64,000 nt of DNA from Dictyostelium discoideum (GCA_000004695.1 CM000151.3:384001-448000); one strand, 5' to 3'. Counted from the stretch's first letter, positions 1 to 15,967 are shown. The notes: generated by a model from the letters alone, not told the origin. Translations and numbers: made by a program.

Positions 1-873
1 TAGGAAGTCTATTTTCTTAAGCATTATGCTTGAGAGGATTGAGGATTTTTTTAATCTCCATCTGCGCTTGTTCATCTGTATGTTGGGTAGAGTGAAAGTG
101 GTTGATAGGAAGTTGTGATCTGATAGAGGTATGTCGTTAATTTTTGGGGGGATTAGGTTCCTTAAGTATAATTGGCTGTAGTTGATTAAGCTATTGTTAA
201 GGTATATTCTGTCTAGTCTCCTTTCCAAGATTCTTGTGAGGTTATTGTTTGTGTTGTGTATCGTTCTTGAGAAGGTGGGTCTTTTATTTAGTTGGTCCAT
301 ATCCATTAGGTTATTTGAAATTCTGATGGCTTCGATTACTGTGGCCATCTCATCTGGGGATTGTGTTGTCAGGTTGCCTTGGTCATCATTTGATGTGTGA
401 TTGTCATTGAAGTCTAAACAGTTGAAGTCGCCTGCTATGATGTCGATGTTTTTATTAGGGTTAGACGTTAGGTTGTGGTATTGGTTGTTGAAGTGTTTAT
501 TTAGTGTTGATGCTAGTGTTTTTCTTTTATCAGGTTGGGCCGGGGCGTATATGGCCAAGATTCTCGTTGTGGTATCTTTTATTAGAATGTCTGATATTAT
601 TAGTCTACCTTCTATTATGAATATTGGTGAGAGTTTTATGTTTTGGTTGTTGTGGTTTAGTATTCCTATTCCGTTGCCTCTGTTGGTTGCGCTAATGATG
701 GAGCCAGGAAATAGCTGGTGTGCTTGTGTTGCGTCGGCGTTGAGTTCATTGACTATGGTTAGTGCCAATGAGTTTGGGGGGGATTGGGATTTGATAAAGT
801 CTGTTTTGTTTTTGAAGGAGGTGTCAGTACCCCAACCTCTGACATTCCATTGGTTGATTTTGATTACTACCAT
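1..873 (-). CDS. Retrotransposon ORF2, N-terminal AP-endonuclease domain; partial, continues beyond position 1
   Basis: Hand translation of the minus strand from ATG (plus 873-871) gives MVVIKINQWNVRGWGTDTSFKNKTDFIKSQS... with no stop codon seen through the first ~290 codons. The track shows no ORF here because the ORF is open-ended. The plus-strand ORFs 182-883 are hydrophobic antisense artefacts. Confidence 0.65.
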   Translation of the reverse strand, partial: MVVIKINQWNVRGWGTDTSFKNKTDFIKSQSPPNSLALTIVNELNADATQAHQLFPGSIISATNRGNGIGILNHNNQNIKLSPIFIIEGRLIISDILIKDTTTRILAIYAPAQPDKRKTLASTLNKHFNNQYHNLTSNPNKNIDIIAGDFNCLDFNDNHTSNDDQGNLTTQSPDEMATVIEAIRISNNLMDMDQLNKRPTFSRTIHNTNNNLTRILERRLDRIYLNNSLINYSQLYLRNLIPPKINDIPLSDHNFLSTTFTLPNIQMNKRRWRLKKSSILSSIMLKKIDFL

Positions 874-1730
874 TATGAGATGATATCGATCTCCTCTTGG
901 GAGTCGTATAGCTGCGGTTTGGATGGTGAAGGGTAGATACTCTCTATGAAGCTCTCAATGATTCCTTTCCTTTCTTTATTGACAGGTGTCTTAGGGGTGG
1001 ATGGGATGTAAGGGTTGCTTCTGTTTATTGTTGGTGAGAGTTGGGTGACCTCGTTGTTTGAGTGGATTTCCTCGTTCTTGCGTTTATGTGATGGAGGGAT
1101 GTTTGGTGTCTTCTCTCTGTTTTCCGAGGATGAATGGATGTTAGTGCTCGTTTTGTTGGTATTGTCTTTTTGGATGGCGTTGGATGTTGTGGTAGTGGTT
1201 GTGGTGGGTTTGACAGATTGAGATTCTGCTTGGTTTTTGGGGGGAAGAGGTTGAGAGGACTTTTTTGATTGGGCTTTTTTCTCTTGGGTTGATTGTTTAT
1301 CAGACTGATTGTTTGCTGGGTCATTTGTTTGTTGTTGTGGTTTTGGTTGAGAGGATTTGATTGCTATCCTGTTTTGGGTGTTGGGAGGATCATCTGTCAT
1401 CTCATCTTCTAATGGTTCTTCCGTGTTGTTTGACTCTACTTTCTTATTTTTCTTTTGTGAGGAGTAGGTTTTGGTGGCCGTTCTGATGGTAAAGTTGGCG
1501 ATTTCTGTATTGTGTTGGCCAGATTTCATTTGATCGCCTATTTTGCATTCTATTAGACCGAATACTAGGAGGTGGTAGGTGGAGTATGTAGTATGGTATA
1601 TTGCATAGGGTATTTCTTCTGCAAAGGCAGTTTTGATGAGGGCGTCCACTATTCCTGCCTTTTCTTTTGGAATTCTTACTCTTCCTGTGAGGACGTGGTA
1701 GTCTCTACTGGAGGTGATGAAAGTTCCCAA
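873..1730 (-). CDS. Retrotransposon ORF1, C-terminal part (Thr/Gln/Asn-rich, basic)
   Basis: 285-aa minus-strand ORF with GC-richer codon usage. It ends 1 nt overlapping the ORF2 start. It is in a different frame from the upstream 120-aa ORF, so ORF1 looks split by a frameshift. Confidence 0.5.
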   Translation of the reverse strand: MGTFITSSRDYHVLTGRVRIPKEKAGIVDALIKTAFAEEIPYAIYHTTYSTYHLLVFGLIECKIGDQMKSGQHNTEIANFTIRTATKTYSSQKKNKKVESNNTEEPLEDEMTDDPPNTQNRIAIKSSQPKPQQQTNDPANNQSDKQSTQEKKAQSKKSSQPLPPKNQAESQSVKPTTTTTTTSNAIQKDNTNKTSTNIHSSSENREKTPNIPPSHKRKNEEIHSNNEVTQLSPTINRSNPYIPSTPKTPVNKERKGIIESFIESIYPSPSKPQLYDSQEEIDIIS

Positions 1731-1753
1731 TTTGCTTCTATCTCTAATGATAT

Positions 1754-2116
1754 TTAGGAGAGATTGTCGTTTTTAATCATCAGGTGTATCATTTTTCTAG
1801 TTCCTTTGCCTATGTATATCTTGTCGATTGGGATATCGTAGTTTGAGAGTGTTTTTCTCATTTCTTCTAACCCCATGAGATCCATTTTGGGGAATTCGAG
1901 TGTAATTGGGTAGAATCCGTTGTTTTTCTCGTAGGTTGAGAGCGCAGTCATGTTCAATATGGTCTCGCAGTATTTGGAGATGTCTTTGAGGCCTATTGAT
2001 AATTTGGGGTAGGTCTCCTTTATCTCTGCTGTTTTTGTGGAGAATTCCTTAATGAAGTTCTCTGATGCCTCGTCCATATGGGGGGCCATTTTAGCCGCGT
2101 CTGCGTAGGAATTCAT
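1754..2116 (-). CDS. Retrotransposon ORF1, N-terminal part, separated from the 285-aa ORF by a frameshift/stop
   Basis: 120-aa minus-strand ORF immediately upstream of 873-1730. (2116-1730) mod 3 = 2, so the two are in different frames. This suggests a degenerate ORF1 or a programmed frameshift. Confidence 0.45.
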   Translation of the reverse strand: MNSYADAAKMAPHMDEASENFIKEFSTKTAEIKETYPKLSIGLKDISKYCETILNMTALSTYEKNNGFYPITLEFPKMDLMGLEEMRKTLSNYDIPIDKIYIGKGTRKMIHLMIKNDNLS

Positions 2117-2241
2117 CTCGATGGGATTCCTTTGAATCGGCGATTTGGTAAGTTAGATCTGTAGATCGTGGTGGATTGGTGATTTTTTTTGAAAGATTGG
2201 TTAAAATTGACCGAGATTAAGGATAGAAAAGGATGAATTAC

Positions 2242-2359
2242 TTTTCACGTGTATCTTGTATCCTCTTGATCGCGGTACGGTTTTTTTTTCTCTTTTTATT
2301 GAAGTAACATTTTTCACGTGTATCTTGTATCCTCTTGATCGCGGTACGGTTTTTTTTTT
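2242..2359. repeat. Two 48-bp direct repeats at the 5' end of the TRE3-like element, separated by about 21 bp
   Basis: ttttcacgtgtatcttgtatcctcttgatcgcggtacggttttttttt occurs at 2242-2289 and again at 2311-2359. This resembles the repeated 5' modules of Dictyostelium TRE elements. Confidence 0.7.
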
Positions 2360-2365
2360 AAGTTT

Positions 2366-2397
<32 letters not shown>

Positions 2398-2406
2398 CAG
2401 CAACTT

Positions 2407-2411
2407 AAAAA
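2407..2411 (-). terminator. Pol III terminator (TTTTT) directly 3' of tRNA-Val
   Basis: Minus strand reads ...CTCTGAATA C TTTTT AAG, with the T-run immediately after the discriminator base. Confidence 0.7.
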
Positions 2412-2412
2412 G

Positions 2413-2486
2413 TATTCAGAGCGGGAATCGAACCCACGACCTAATCCGTGTTAAGGATTCGTGATAACCGACTACACCATCCGAAC
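2413..2486 (-). tRNA. tRNA-Val(AAC): tRNA-Val (anticodon AAC)
   Basis: Reverse complement is GTTCGGATGGTGTAGTCGGTTATCACGAATCCTTAACACGGATTAGGTCGTGGGTTCGATTCCCGCTCTGAATA. It has the canonical B box GGTTCGATTCC and an A box TGTAGTCGG. The anticodon stem AATCC/GGATT carries the loop TTAACAC, giving anticodon AAC. Acceptor stem is 7 bp and the discriminator is A. Confidence 0.85.
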
Positions 2487-2514
2487 TAATCTATAAAAAT
2501 TATTTTTAAACCGT

Positions 2515-2782
2515 TGTAATAAAGCTTGTTAGCTTTATAAATATATATAATTAATAATTATATAATTGAATAATACTTTGTTATCTTTATTTAATATTAA
2601 TTTATATTTATAATATTCAATATTGTTTATAAAATTATTCTTTAGTATTTATATTATTTATAATGAGTTGACAGTATTATTATTATTATTATTATTATAT
2701 TATTTAAATGTGTGTCAACTATAATTAGTAATGTAATATGCATATTTAATATCTATTAATTTTATAGAGTAACTTTATTACA
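2515..2782 (-). repeat. 3' LTR (268 bp) with terminal inverted repeat TGTAATAAAG...CTTTATTACA
   Basis: Near-identical to 4887-5154. It starts TG and ends CA, with the PPT adjacent on the minus strand. Confidence 0.85.
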
Positions 2783-3379
2783 TATCCCCCCCTTTTAGTT
2801 GAAAAAAATTTTTCAATCTTTTAATATAAAACACATCATGATTTTTAATATTATCCAATACTAATTTGAATTTTAAATCGCTAACTCTCTCATGTACTTT
2901 GAAAAGACCTTCCCAAGATTTATTGAGCTTTACTGGACCAACAGTGGATTGTAAATAGACATAATCTCCTACTTGAATATTTGAACGAGAAACTTTTTTA
3001 TTAATTTGTGATAATTGGTCTTTACCAAGATTATCCTTAATGAGACAAGGACGTTTGAGGTTATTATTTACAATTTGGGCGAAATTATGAGCAAAATCTA
3101 ATCTTGATAAATTTGTACATGGATTTCTTATTAATGGTTGAATTGAGGTTATTTGTGATTTAATTATTGAATTCTCTGTTTGATTTAATGATATTGATTT
3201 TAATGGTAAATTTGATGTTATTGGTGAATCTATTGGTTCTTGGAATAAGAATTCTGGAATATCGTAATCTATTGGTAGTTGTTCTTCAATAGTTGGATAC
3301 GATTTGATTGATAGTATATGATGAGAATTAAAATTTTCAATTAAATGATCAGTATCTGTTAATAATTCTGATTTTGATG

Positions 3380-3410
<31 letters not shown>

Positions 3411-4705
3411 TGAATAATCAGATACTGTTTTAAATATAGTTTGTATACATGGTTGGGTTTCTTTAGATATTAATTTGGTACCAACATTGAATTCAAGATT
3501 CTTAATGATCATTTCTTTAAAATCAATGACTAAATTTAATCCAATTATTGTATCAATGCCAAATATACAATCAATTGATGTATCATTATCTTTAACAACA
3601 TTAACTTTAACTCTAGCGAATGCTTTACCTAATTTAATTGTTGTGTTACTTATTCCAATGATTTTGATTTCATTATTTGATGCTGATTTAACAGAATATT
3701 GTTTATTTTCAATCTTTAATTTTAACTTTTTAGCAATACTTTCCCAAACAATAGTAAGTGATGAACCAGTATCAATCAAACCTCTAACATTTTTATTATT
3801 TATTAATAAAGCTGCATTCATACTATCTATTCCAATTGAATTAATTGTACTATTATTAACCATTGTAATTGCATTAGTGCTATGATTATTATATGATTGT
3901 TTATTCTCATTATAATTATTCTTTTTATCTTTAGACCAACACTCTTGAATTACATGACCTTTCTTTTTGCAATATTTACAAAATTTTGTGATTGAATTTA
4001 CTTGATTTTGTGGTGCTTTATAAGGGGATGATTGTGGTGACATTTGTGGTGATCGATTATAATATTGATTTTTAAAAATTGGTGTTGAAATTTCTTCAGA
4101 TTCAATTGATTGTTGTTCGTTTTGAGATGTAACATATTGAGGGGATGTTGCAGAATAACCAGAACCCGAACCTAGATATCTTTGATTACCAAATTCTTGC
4201 AACGTCTTTGCAACTAATTGACCAGTGTACATTGATCTACCTTTGATACGAATTGAACCATCTTCACAAGACTTTGCAATATCTATTGCTCTTTTTAATG
4301 ATTTTGGTGCACATTTTGTAATTTCAATACCCAATTCAGTACCAACAGCTGAATAAAACAATTGTATTTTAAACTTTTCTGAAATATCAACTGCTGAACA
4401 TTTTGATAGAAATTTACCAATTAATATATCTAATGTATTGTATTTATATTCTCCCAACTTTGTTAATTCTGTTAAATCATCACTATCACCAATATCAAAA
4501 GCATCTTTAAGATCTTCAATTATCTCCATTGCTGTTAAGTCTGTATCCAATGTTGCGGCATATTCCAATGCATTGTTTCTTAGTTTTCTAATAATATCAG
4601 CTTTCGATATTTCCTCGCCATGAATTAGTAAGAGTAAGTGTTTGAATTTACGAAATGATAAACCTTTTCCATCACCCGAAAAAATTACGTTTTCATTATT
4701 ACTCA

Positions 4706-4706
<1 letters not shown>
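2778..4706 (-). CDS. Gag-Pro polyprotein of the LTR element: capsid-like region, CCHC zinc knuckle, retroviral-type aspartic protease
   Basis: Contains CKYCKKKGHVIQECWSKD (Cx2Cx4Hx4C) and LIDTGSSLTIVW (the D-T/S-G active site of retropepsin). The ORF end runs through the PPT into the LTR edge. This fits an internal deletion that fuses the truncated pol to the LTR. Confidence 0.75.
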
Positions 4707-4776
<70 letters not shown>

Positions 4777-4886
4777 TATTAAATTAAATTTAATCTAATG
4801 TAAAATTTTAATTGATTGAATAATTTGATAACTTTATATTTATAGTATATTTTTTTTTTTTTTTTTTGAAAGACGATGTCGCCAAA

Positions 4887-5154
4887 TGTAATAAAGCTTG
4901 TTAGCTTTATAAATATATATAATTAATAATTATATAATTGAATAATACTTTGTTATCTTTATTTAATATTAATTTATATTTATAATATTCAATATTGTTT
5001 ATAAAATTATTCTTTAGTATTTATATTATTTATAATGAGTTGACAGTATTATTATTATTATTATTATTATATTATTTAAATGTGTGTCAACTATAATTAG
5101 TAATGTAATATGCATATTTAATATCTATTAATTTTATAGAGTAACTTTATTACA
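4887..5154 (-). repeat. 5' LTR (268 bp) of the same element
   Basis: Direct repeat of 2515-2782. A putative PBS TTTGGCGACATCGTC lies immediately internal on the minus strand (plus 4870-4886). Confidence 0.85.
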
Positions 5155-5412
5155 CCGTAATAATTATTAAAAATAGTTTAAAAGAATCATCCAAGTTGGC
5201 ACTTTTTTGTAATTACAAAAATTATATATGGGGACTCATATAAAATAATATGAACAATTTTGAAAAGTGCACTTAGATAGTTTTTATAATAACTAAATTT
5301 TTTTTTTTTTTTTTTGAGATATTTCATTATTTCCGAAATAATTTTTAAAATAAATTTTTTTTTTTTTTTTTCTTTTTTAAAAAAAAAACAATGGATAGAG
5401 ATAAAAATTATA

Positions 5413-8448
<3,036 letters not shown>

Positions 8449-9192: not shown

Positions 9193-12354
<3,162 letters not shown>

Positions 12355-12819
12355 CTAATTTTTAAATAAATTTAATAAATAATAATAAATAATTGTTTTT
12401 TAAAATTATGATAATTTATTATAAATTGATACAAAATAGAATAACCTTTGGCATTGTAATTTATTGGATAATAGTTTGAGTTCTATAGAATTGTAATATT
12501 TGTACTATTTGATTTACCAAATTGTTGAACTTATGACTTTGAAAATTTGATACTCAATATCCTCAGATATATAATCTGATTTTCTAGCTTTTAATCTTTT
12601 TCTTTATATTTTTTTAAATTTTTTTTTTTTTTTAAAATTTTTTTAGTTTTTGATTGATTATTATCATTATTAAATAATTTATATAAATTAAATATTAAAT
12701 GATTAATTTTTTTTTTTTTTTTTAACAAAACCTCGGAACTTAAGAAATTTGCCGAGTTTCACATATGACCCTTTTTTTTTTTTTTTTTTTTTGATTTTTT
12801 TTTTTGTCAATTTGTTTTT

Positions 12820-12913: not shown

Positions 12914-15967
<3,054 letters not shown>

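Follow-up and report, generated by a model that had tools for sequence, protein, structure and literature searches.

A tRNA-Val(AAC) gene of Dictyostelium discoideum has very probably been used once each as a landing mark by two unrelated tRNA-targeting retroelement families, DGLT-A on its upstream side and TRE3 on its downstream side, in independent events, a reading to which we assign a probability of about 0.93. The gene lies in the window analyzed here, i.e., a stretch of 64,000 nucleotides (GCA_000004695.1 CM000151.3:384001-448000), and the same locus was found in a second assembly (GCA_054883475.1; locus L002) with 0 mismatches across 8.3 kb of unique flank. The species is also borne out by D. 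discoideum assemblies whose proteins are 97-100% identical to those encoded here. The sequence-only reading of the window had placed this gene between a DGLT-A-like and a TRE3-like element, and the geometry, the orientation and both families were upheld by our analysis. It had also presented the locus as a compact natural example of two targeting mechanisms. Two targeting families are indeed found at one tRNA gene, but the DGLT-A copy lacks targeting proteins of its own. Insertion beside tRNA genes in this manner is frequent and well documented for both families, and the DGLT-A/tRNA/TRE3 arrangement was already known, so that this is an ordinary locus and a textbook situation rather than a discovery. 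All the features described below are on the minus strand and are given in window coordinates.

Structure of the tRNA gene and its two neighbors

The tRNA-Val(AAC) gene (2413-2486) has an intact cloverleaf with an A box and a B box, and it was detected both by Rfam (2413-2486, minus strand, 57.9 bits, E = 8e-11) and by ARAGORN (2412-2486, minus strand). Its B-box region, GTCGTGGGTTCGATTC, agrees with the published consensus GTCnnnnGTTCRAnYC, and the Val(AAC)rev primer described in PMC3159450 matches the gene exactly. The 3' flank (2398-2412) reads C-TTTTT-AAGTTGCTG; its T5 run (2407-2411) is the Pol III terminator, and a palindrome arm has its left end in this flank. Taken together, these data bear out the earlier description of an intact gene with A box, B box and TTTTT terminator.

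The upstream LTR element spans 2.64 kb (2515-5154). Its 3' LTR (2515-2782) and 5' LTR (4887-5154) are 268 nt each, with TG...CA ends, and are 100% identical, which indicates that the insertion is young. The element is flanked by a 4-bp target-site duplication, ACGG (5155-5158 and 2511-2514), and the second of these copies forms the distal 4 nt of a spacer (2487-2514) that separates tRNA position 1 from the 3' LTR by exactly 28 nt, the distance already claimed for it. A primer-binding site, TGGCGACATCGTC (4872-4884), is located 2 nt past the 5' LTR and has the TGG signature described for DGLT-A, and a polypurine tract, AAAAGGGGGGGA (2785-2796), is located 2 nt before the 3' LTR. A single 642-aa ORF (2778-4706) encodes a Gag with a CX2CX4HX4C knuckle, an aspartic protease with a DTG motif (Pfam Asp_protease_2, E = 8e-11), a linker and an integrase C-terminal SH3/GPY-F-like tail (weak SH3_Tf2-1 match) that extends only ~39 aa after the GPY/F-like motif WEGLFKV. 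Neither the Pfam search nor the translation of this ORF contained a reverse transcriptase (RT), an RNase H or an integrase core, and Pfam gave no chromodomain match in it. Without an RT, an RNase H or an integrase core, this copy is an internally deleted, non-autonomous derivative, and proteins encoded by it could not have directed it to the tRNA gene.

The downstream non-LTR element has a 5' UTR (2117-2356) in which a 48-nt sequence occurs twice as an exact direct repeat (2242-2289 and 2311-2358); the number and spacing of these repeats differ among copies when the 5' ends of three of them are aligned. ORF1 (873-2116) starts with an ATG at 2116 and ends with a TAA at 875-873 that overlaps the ORF2 ATG (873-871) by 1 nt in a -1 arrangement (TAATGG at 875-870), as the sequence-only reading had noticed. 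Alignment with two other copies (L007 and L008) revealed a private 1-nt deletion around position 1768 of the window that leads to a stop at 1756-1754; the intact ORF1 of sister copies (L007) encodes 417 aa. The N-terminal 291 codons of ORF2 (1-873), which runs past the window start, encode an apurinic/apyrimidinic-type endonuclease domain, as had also been proposed, although its match to Pfam Exo_endo_phos (residues 9-253) is weak (E = 7.6e-4, under the gathering score); the segment is 97-98% identical to D. discoideum proteins, and none of the database proteins matched is named as a TRE. The continuation of ORF2 in the second assembly contains an RVT_1 domain (E = 5e-34), and the C-terminal part of ORF2 carries a CX2CX10HX4C (CCHC) motif, CPLCKEDMSKDPYGHLFFSC. 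The ORF2 of that assembly also has a mutated start codon and a small inversion. With the ORF1 frameshift inside the window and these ORF2 lesions outside, the window copy is dead.

The 3' end of this element is beyond the window, and in the second assembly it consists of a ~39-nt poly(A) tail and, directly after it, GCAACTTAAA, a repeat of the 5' flank. The 5' copy of this target-site duplication (2357-2366) reads CAAACTTAAA in the window and GCAACTTAAA in the second assembly, where it is perfect with the 3' copy. The duplication sets the 5' end of the element at ~2356, i.e., 56 nt from the tRNA 3' end, in line with the 50-60 bp estimated previously. An A31 tract (2367-2397) accounts for 31 of these 56 nt. 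The spacer differs in the second, near-identical assembly, where it is 73 nt long; the centre of a 64-nt palindrome carrying the external-B-box-like GATCGACTC is found there in place of the A31 tract. Using the consensus of PMC3159450, no external B box was found between the tRNA and the element in the window version of the spacer.

Family assignment of the two elements

The window LTR element is a DGLT-A, an assignment made through its LTR identity with a sister copy (L006), its hallmarks and its position upstream of tRNA genes. The LTRs of the window copy and of L006 share 99.6% identity, and the whole elements share 92%. The GPY/F segment of L006 matches 35/36 positions of the published Dd_DGLT-A, the consensus compared being the 35-aa GPY/F segment of PMC5006619 (Fig. 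S1). The final ~100 aa of the window ORF diverge from the consensus-like L006, and it is through its LTRs and the first two-thirds of its ORF that the window copy is linked, indirectly, to DGLT-A. DGLT-A has been defined by the lack of a chromodomain and by a short extension past the integrase GPY/F motif (PMC5006619), together with a TGG primer-binding site and a polypurine tract, whereas Skipper has a polypyrimidine tract in place of the TGG primer-binding site (PMC5006619, PMC6101501). Related 2.6-kb copies are located upstream of tRNA genes in 5/5 cases, at 12-28 bp, each with its own 4-bp duplication; the other four are at 12, 14, 14 and 14 bp, in either orientation, the 28 bp of the window being the outlier.

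The non-LTR element behaves as a TRE3, judged on its structure and on the genomic behavior of its family rather than on an alignment with a type sequence. [quoted passage not shown] The published TRE3 layout, with ORF2 in the -1 frame and endonuclease, RT and zinc-finger domains, corresponds to the one found here. Tandem stacking of TRE3 has been published as well, and it is also seen behind the tRNA gene here. The element is ~5.27 kb long without its tail, which fits TRE3-A/Tdd-3 (5,229 bp) or TRE3-B (5,279 bp) as candidate subfamilies (lengths from PMC5006619). TRE3-C (4,734 bp) was discarded by its length, and TRE3-D by the existence of full-length copies.

Two other assignments were weighed. 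The LTR element might be Skipper-2 (formerly DGLT-P) or Skipper-1, being of the Ty3/gypsy type and having a C-terminal stretch of 36 aa that is just 50% identical to the published DGLT-A GPY/F segment; the sequence-only reading itself had named Skipper and DGLT-P as the families to watch for. But Skipper-2 is located downstream of tRNA genes and Skipper-1 in centromeres (PMC5006619), and both carry a chromodomain and a polypyrimidine tract, whereas the window element has a TGG site, no chromodomain match and a short tail after its GPY/F-like motif, its relatives are upstream of tRNA genes in every copy, and its LTR is 99.6% identical to that of the copy with the nearly perfect DGLT-A segment. 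Skipper is effectively refuted by these features and is an extremely improbable identity for the DGLT-A copy. On the other side of the gene, the non-LTR element, of which only the 5' 2.36 kb is within the window and which was assigned by structure and behavior, might be a TRE5-type or unrelated LINE lying beside the tRNA by accident, e.g., one that targeted another Pol III gene outside the window. TRE5 elements, however, insert upstream of tRNA genes at a distance of ~50 bp and in head-to-head orientation (PMC3159450), with their 5' end facing the tRNA 5' end, and the window family departs from this rule at three independent loci, where it is downstream and co-oriented; the stacking behind one tRNA gene is also typical of TRE3. 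We consider a non-TRE3 element highly unlikely.

Origin of the arrangement

In the history that we propose, a 2.64-kb deleted Ty3/gypsy derivative of DGLT-A integrated upstream of the tRNA coding sequence, at 24-28 bp from it, and generated the 4-bp target duplication. At that time, ~280 bp separated the tRNA gene from a divergently oriented protein-coding gene, and the insertion fell between them. The coding capacity of the window copy is limited to Gag, protease and an integrase tail, so that RT, RNase H and integrase would have been supplied in trans by an autonomous DGLT-A. Targeting may have been guided by TFIIIC, as suggested by the two-hybrid finding that the RNase H and integrase N-terminal domains of DGLT-A dock on the TFIIIC subunit Tfc4 (PMC6101501). 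On the other side, a full-length, L1-like TRE3 of ~5.3 kb landed 56 nt beyond the tRNA 3' end (73 nt in the second assembly), in the tRNA orientation, by target-primed reverse transcription, of which the poly(A) tail and the 10-bp target duplication are the traces. An older TRE3 of another subfamily, truncated at its 5' end, was already located behind the tRNA gene, and the new copy came to lie between the two.

DGLT-A derivatives of 2.6 kb form a family in D. discoideum that has transposed. It comprises at least five insertions, each with its own 4-bp duplication and with LTR pairs that are 98.5-100% identical. All its lineages, which differ by dS values of up to 0.6, retain an intact ORF (632-642 aa), and dN/dS is ~0.2 for the Gag-protease part. 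Beyond mere decay, these Gag-protease derivatives might form a non-autonomous sub-family in its own right, with repeated and recent transposition, although we hold this to be somewhat doubtful. If true, a DGLT-A helper with RT, RNase H and integrase would exist, or would have existed very recently, in D. discoideum, which would run counter to the published suggestion that DGLT-A amplification has ended; the published statement covers only the absence of a full-length copy.

The intact ORF in five diverged copies and the low dN/dS could also be expected if the 642-aa Gag-protease ORF were a domesticated host gene outside any transposon, and the protein set of AX4 does include its paralogue DDB_G0279931, where it is listed as an ordinary hypothetical protein. 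However, each copy is located at a different tRNA gene and has its own pair of LTRs, 4-bp duplication, primer-binding site and polypurine tract, which points to transposition and not to a fixed host locus, and purifying selection is also expected where lineages must package themselves. Domestication is very improbable, and the ORF is better regarded as that of a transposed derivative. A functional link between the two insertions, either because one recruits or favors the other or because selection maintains the sandwich as insulation for the tRNA gene, could be invoked from the fact that a second DGLT-A/tRNA/TRE3-fragment sandwich is found at a tRNA-Ile(AAT) locus (L001), so that two of the five DGLT-A loci inspected also have TRE3 at the same tRNA gene. 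But TRE3 was not found downstream at the other three, and, given 139 TRE3 copies adjoining ~403 tRNA genes and 18 DGLT-A copies on the upstream side of such genes (counts including those of PMC5006619), ~6 co-occupied genes would be expected by chance. The observed frequency fits chance and the co-occurrence is as predicted from published element densities. A link of this kind seems very improbable, and we infer that the two insertions at tRNA-Val(AAC) were independent of one another.

Comparison with known systems

The window copy shares with DGLT-A an LTR of about the published 265 bp (PMC5006619), the TG...CA ends, the TGG primer-binding site, the polypurine tract, a single ORF opening with Gag (CCHC knuckle) and protease, the short tail after GPY/F and the lack of a chromodomain. 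It is not full-length, in agreement with the report that all D. discoideum DGLT-A copies are incomplete (PMC5006619): it measures 2.64 kb vs. the 5,054-bp consensus, and its ORF lacks the RT, RNase H and integrase core of the full GAG-PR-RT-RNH-IN ORF of 1,437 aa (PMC6101501). The downstream element shares with TRE3-A/Tdd-3 or TRE3-B the length of ~5.3 kb, the poly(A) tail, the target-site duplication, an ORF1 that would be of 417 aa if intact and that overlaps ORF2 in the -1 frame, and the endonuclease, RT and CCHC domains of ORF2; it differs by its ORF1 frameshift and, in the second assembly, by the ORF2 start mutation and inversion. Both distances had been called canonical, and both are within the published ranges, i.e., 13-33 bp upstream in either orientation for DGLT-A (PMC5006619) and 40-150 bp for TRE3 (14-228 bp in Table 1 of PMC5006619), but neither is modal, since 28 bp comes close to the upper limit for DGLT-A and 56 bp is below the TRE3 mode of ~100 bp.

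Ty3 of Saccharomyces cerevisiae resembles DGLT-A in being a Ty3/gypsy element that inserts upstream of tRNA genes, within a few tens of bp, and reads the Pol III transcription complex. The target-site duplications of Ty3 are of 5 bp, whereas DGLT-A makes 4-bp duplications here. The integrase of Ty3 binds TFIIIB and the element inserts at the transcription start, whereas in DGLT-A it is the RNase H and the integrase N-terminal domain that bind the TFIIIC subunit Tfc4 (PMC6101501).

The tRNA-Val(AAC) gene and its surroundings

The only tRNA gene of the 64-kb window is a tRNA-Val(AAC) gene located on the minus strand (2412/2413-2486), identified by ARAGORN and also by Rfam (57.9 bits, E=8e-11), which gave no other match within positions 1-8000. 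The sequence-only reading considered this gene intact, with a B box and a TTTTT terminator, and we agree: every stem pairs (standard or G-U), the B-box region GTCGTGGGTTCGATTC matches the D. discoideum consensus GTCnnnnGTTCRAnYC, and a T5 run is found one base past the gene. In addition, the primer Val(AAC)rev (PMC3159450) is the exact reverse complement of the 3' part of the gene.

The window is AT-rich (GC ~20% outside the transposon at the window start), and the proteins encoded by positions 1-5160 share 97-100% identity with predicted proteins of Dictyostelium discoideum assemblies. An exact-protein look-up located the same locus (L002) in contig JBTAPE010000001.1 of assembly GCA_054883475.1. 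There are 0 mismatches between the window and L002 across the 8.3-kb flank, the only differences there being in homopolymer and triplet-repeat runs, which vary in length. The remaining 59 kb of the window contain no other copy of either retroelement.

The upstream LTR element precedes the start codon (ATG at 5413) of a divergently transcribed gene by ~260 bp. It landed in an intergenic region that originally measured ~280 bp, and exemplifies the "safe haven" idea. The genes adjoining the element (5413-8448 and 9193-12354) are tandem paralogues of ~1,000 aa each that share 58% protein identity and whose sole functional clue is a weak Rho_N-like match. A third large ORF (12914-15967) is unrelated to them. 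The long TTA/AAT and homopolymer runs of this gene region differ in length between the window and L002.

The upstream DGLT-A element and its short relatives

The upstream element (2515-5154) is bounded by direct LTRs of 268 nt (2515-2782 and 4887-5154) that are 100% identical, start with TG and end with CA, and it is flanked by the 4-bp target-site duplication (TSD) ACGG (5155-5158 and 2511-2514). A TGG primer-binding site, TGGCGACATCGTC, is located 2 nt inside the 5' LTR, and a polypurine tract, AAAAGGGGGGGA, 2 nt before the 3' LTR. The element encodes a single ORF of 642 aa on the minus strand (4706..2778), comprising a Gag-like region (CX2CX4HX4C knuckle), an aspartic protease (Pfam Asp_protease_2, E=8e-11), and a terminal part with a weak Tf2-1-type integrase SH3 or GPY/F-like tail. 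Reverse transcriptase (RT), RNase H, and the integrase core are absent from the element. The published DGLT-A is a 5,054-bp element with 265-bp LTRs, a TGG primer-binding site, and one 1,437-aa GAG-PR-RT-RNH-IN ORF that has no chromodomain; it inserts in either orientation at 13-33 bp upstream of tRNA genes, and the genome does not contain any full-length copy (PMC5006619, PMC6101501, PMC5911963).

Related copies were obtained for comparison through their proteins. The L006 copy shares 99.6% identity with the window element in the LTRs and 92% across the whole 2.6 kb, and in its C-terminal GPY/F segment 35/36 aligned positions agree with the published Dd_DGLT-A (PMC5006619 Fig. S1). Since the 3' LTR ends exactly 28 nt from position 1 of the tRNA and a sister with near-identical LTRs matches Dd_DGLT-A so closely, the proposal of a DGLT-A element 28 bp upstream of the gene is confirmed. 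A Skipper or Skipper-2 identity was rejected, given that the element has a TGG primer-binding site, carries no chromodomain, and is located upstream of a tRNA gene, and it is also opposed by the match of the sister copy to the published fragment.

The window copy and its near-twin in L001 (97% DNA identity) share just 50% identity with the published GPY/F segment, versus 97% for L006, which indicates that they have DGLT-A LTRs and a DGLT-A Gag-protease region but a divergent variant of the 3' internal part. The combination of a divergent C-terminal part with near-identical LTRs and Gag-protease makes the window element a mosaic or recombinant. Positions 2781-3100, i.e., the last ~100 codons of the ORF, are where the window and L001 copies diverge strongly from the consensus-like L006.

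The comparison set comprises five copies of ~2.6 kb, all of them with the Gag-protease-integrase-tail architecture and each one upstream of a different tRNA gene. Apart from the window/L002 copy (2515-5154; TSD ACGG, 28 bp from Val-AAC), these are L001 5569-8162 (TSD TTTC, 14 bp from Ile-AAT), L006 6562-9179 (TSD CTAA, 14 bp from Leu-TAA), L004 6509-9179 (TSD TCCG, 12 bp from Leu-CAA), and L005 6513-9179 (TSD CATA, 14 bp from Leu-AAG). The LTR pairs within the copies are 98.5-100% identical and the ORF is intact in 5/5 (632-642 aa). Between lineages, dN/dS is ~0.2 for the Gag-protease region, with dS up to 0.62, and 0.56-0.83 for the linker and integrase tail.

The possession of own TSDs at different tRNA genes, the near-identical LTR pairs, and the intact ORFs argue that the short form itself has transposed repeatedly. 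Because this form lacks RT, RNase H, and integrase, we infer that these proteins came in trans, including the RNase H and integrase N-terminal domains, which have been reported to bind the TFIIIC subunit Tfc4 (PMC6101501). The window element is a DGLT-A copy that landed correctly although it is devoid of the domains implicated in targeting. Taken together, the 2.6-kb copies look like a repeatedly trans-mobilised non-autonomous sub-family, of which we found no description in the literature searched.

There is also a practical annotation point. The gene DDB_G0279931 of strain AX4 is the ORF of the sister derivative located 14 bp upstream of tRNA-Ile(AAT) (L001 6001-7911), and therefore a transposon gene sits in the host gene set. 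Its annotation in AX4 is hypothetical protein or peptidase A2 domain-containing protein.

The downstream TRE3 element and the tRNA-TRE3 spacer

The non-LTR element had been described as TRE3-like and beginning 50-60 bp past the 3' end of the tRNA gene. Its TSD-defined 5' end is at ~2356, 56 nt from the tRNA, and elsewhere the family is also downstream of tRNA genes and co-oriented with them: L007 carries a tandem of three same-family copies ~104 bp downstream of tRNA-Leu(CAA), and L009 one copy 82 bp downstream of tRNA-Asp(GTC), with 96-99% DNA identity. TRE5 elements occupy the upstream side of the tRNA gene in head-to-head orientation; since this family shows another position and orientation at three loci, a TRE5 identity was rejected. 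Among the TRE3 subfamilies, TRE3-C is ruled out by its length (4,734 bp) and TRE3-D because full-length copies exist, leaving TRE3-A (5,229 bp) or TRE3-B (5,279 bp) by length. The full element with its tail has 5,306 bp.

Both ORFs are encoded on the minus strand, in the orientation of the tRNA gene, ORF1 with its ATG at 2116 and ORF2 at 873-871. The last base of the ORF1 stop is the A of the ORF2 ATG, so that the 1-nt overlap recognized in the motif TAATGG is real; this -1 arrangement has been published for TRE elements. Pfam gave no match for ORF1. Such a match is not expected for a TRE ORF1. An endonuclease-type ORF2 had been anticipated, and residues 9-253 indeed show a weak endonuclease/exonuclease/phosphatase match. 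The remainder of the element was studied in L002, reaching 3.2 kb past window position 1, where the same ORF2 runs on into RVT_1 (E=5e-34) and then a CX2CX10HX4C motif. There the element terminates with a poly(A) of ~39 nt, and the sequence after it, GCAACTTAAA, is a repeat of the 5' flank. Its distant database relatives are L1-like elements that carry endonuclease, RT, and zf-RVT domains. Pieces of ORF2 matched unnamed D. discoideum "hypothetical protein" entries and DDB_G0274837, and a full-text literature search for the DDB gene ids found no mention of them.

The 5' UTR contains a 48-nt repeat (A9-CCGTACCGCGATCAAGAGGATACAAGATACACGTGAAAA) whose arrangement differs from one TRE3 copy to the next. 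Two exact repeats are present on the minus strand of the window (2242-2289 and 2311-2358), 69 nt apart, whereas the sister element in L007 (4516-4600) has two that are 38 nt apart and the one in L008 (4566-4615) has a single copy. This variation resembles that of the 5' modules of TRE5-A.

ORF1 of the window copy is split by a private 1-nt deletion (AAAAACG-ACAAT) at ~1768, while the sister copies have an intact ORF1 of 417 aa. Outside the window, a segment of ORF2 of ~125 nt (L002 ~12425-12550) is inverted with respect to the L001 and L007 copies, and this inversion creates in-frame stops. Directly after the 3' TSD there is an older, 5'-truncated TRE3-like ORF2 in the same orientation (L002 13684-13929), belonging to a different subfamily (~40% identical, by eye), so that the newer element must have landed between the tRNA gene and a TRE3 already in place. 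Such stacking behind one tRNA gene is the published "tandem" pattern.

The spacer between the tRNA gene and TRE3 differs between the two assemblies. The window has A31 followed by CAAACTTAAA (2397-2357), and L002 (8301-8367), with a spacer of 73 nt, has instead of A31 a perfect 64-nt palindrome with 26-nt arms, AAGTTGCTGGGACCTAGACGCAGGAT-cgactctgtagt-ATCCTGCGTCTAGGTCCCAGCAACTT (predicted folding energy -38.7 kcal/mol, z=-15.9). At its centre, ~31-39 nt past the tRNA gene, GATCGACTC differs by one mismatch from the external-B-box consensus GTTCRAnYC; external B boxes lie ~41 bp downstream in 66% of tRNA genes (PMC3159450). Given this palindrome, there is no support for reading A31 as the tail of an earlier TRE3 insertion that was truncated or had zero length. 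L002 has a perfect TSD (GCAACTTAAA), the window an imperfect one.

The spacer difference could be a real strain difference or polymorphism. The mismatches between the window and L002 are all grouped (8/8) within 682-1239, and 6/8 of the window bases agree with other family copies, including the G of the ORF2 ATG (position 871), which is A in L002. This cluster points to gene conversion or to a mixing of reads from different copies in one assembly. The spacer difference could likewise have arisen, together with the cluster, by gene conversion, or both could be cross-copy assembly or cloning artefacts in one assembly.

Co-occupancy of tRNA genes by DGLT-A and TRE3

The sequence-only reading presented the tRNA-Val(AAC) gene as sandwiched between DGLT-A and TRE3, and it was right in both observation and interpretation. 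Its claim of canonical distances holds in that both are inside the published ranges, but neither is modal: DGLT-A is at 28 bp versus ~14 bp in the sister copies, and TRE3 at 56 nt versus a mode of ~100 bp.

The combination is not remarkable. According to published counts, 139 TRE3 copies are directly adjacent to ~403 tRNA genes, 18/20 DGLT-A insertions are upstream of tRNA genes, and a TRE element accompanies 61% of tRNA genes. From 139 TRE3 copies, ~403 tRNA genes, and 18 DGLT-A insertions, we calculate that chance alone would place both elements at ~six genes. TRE3 sequence was found downstream of the same tRNA gene at two of the five DGLT-A loci inspected, i.e., the window and L001, the latter with a co-oriented TRE3-like ORF2 fragment ~240 bp downstream of tRNA-Ile. 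As a teaching example, the locus shows cleanly how two "safe-haven" strategies converge, and it has little weight beyond annotation. In D. discoideum, descriptions of DGLT-A and TRE3 elements targeting tRNA genes go back to the 1990s, genome-wide catalogues of such insertions exist, and the locus is a standard, already known kind of tRNA-gene neighbourhood in this organism.
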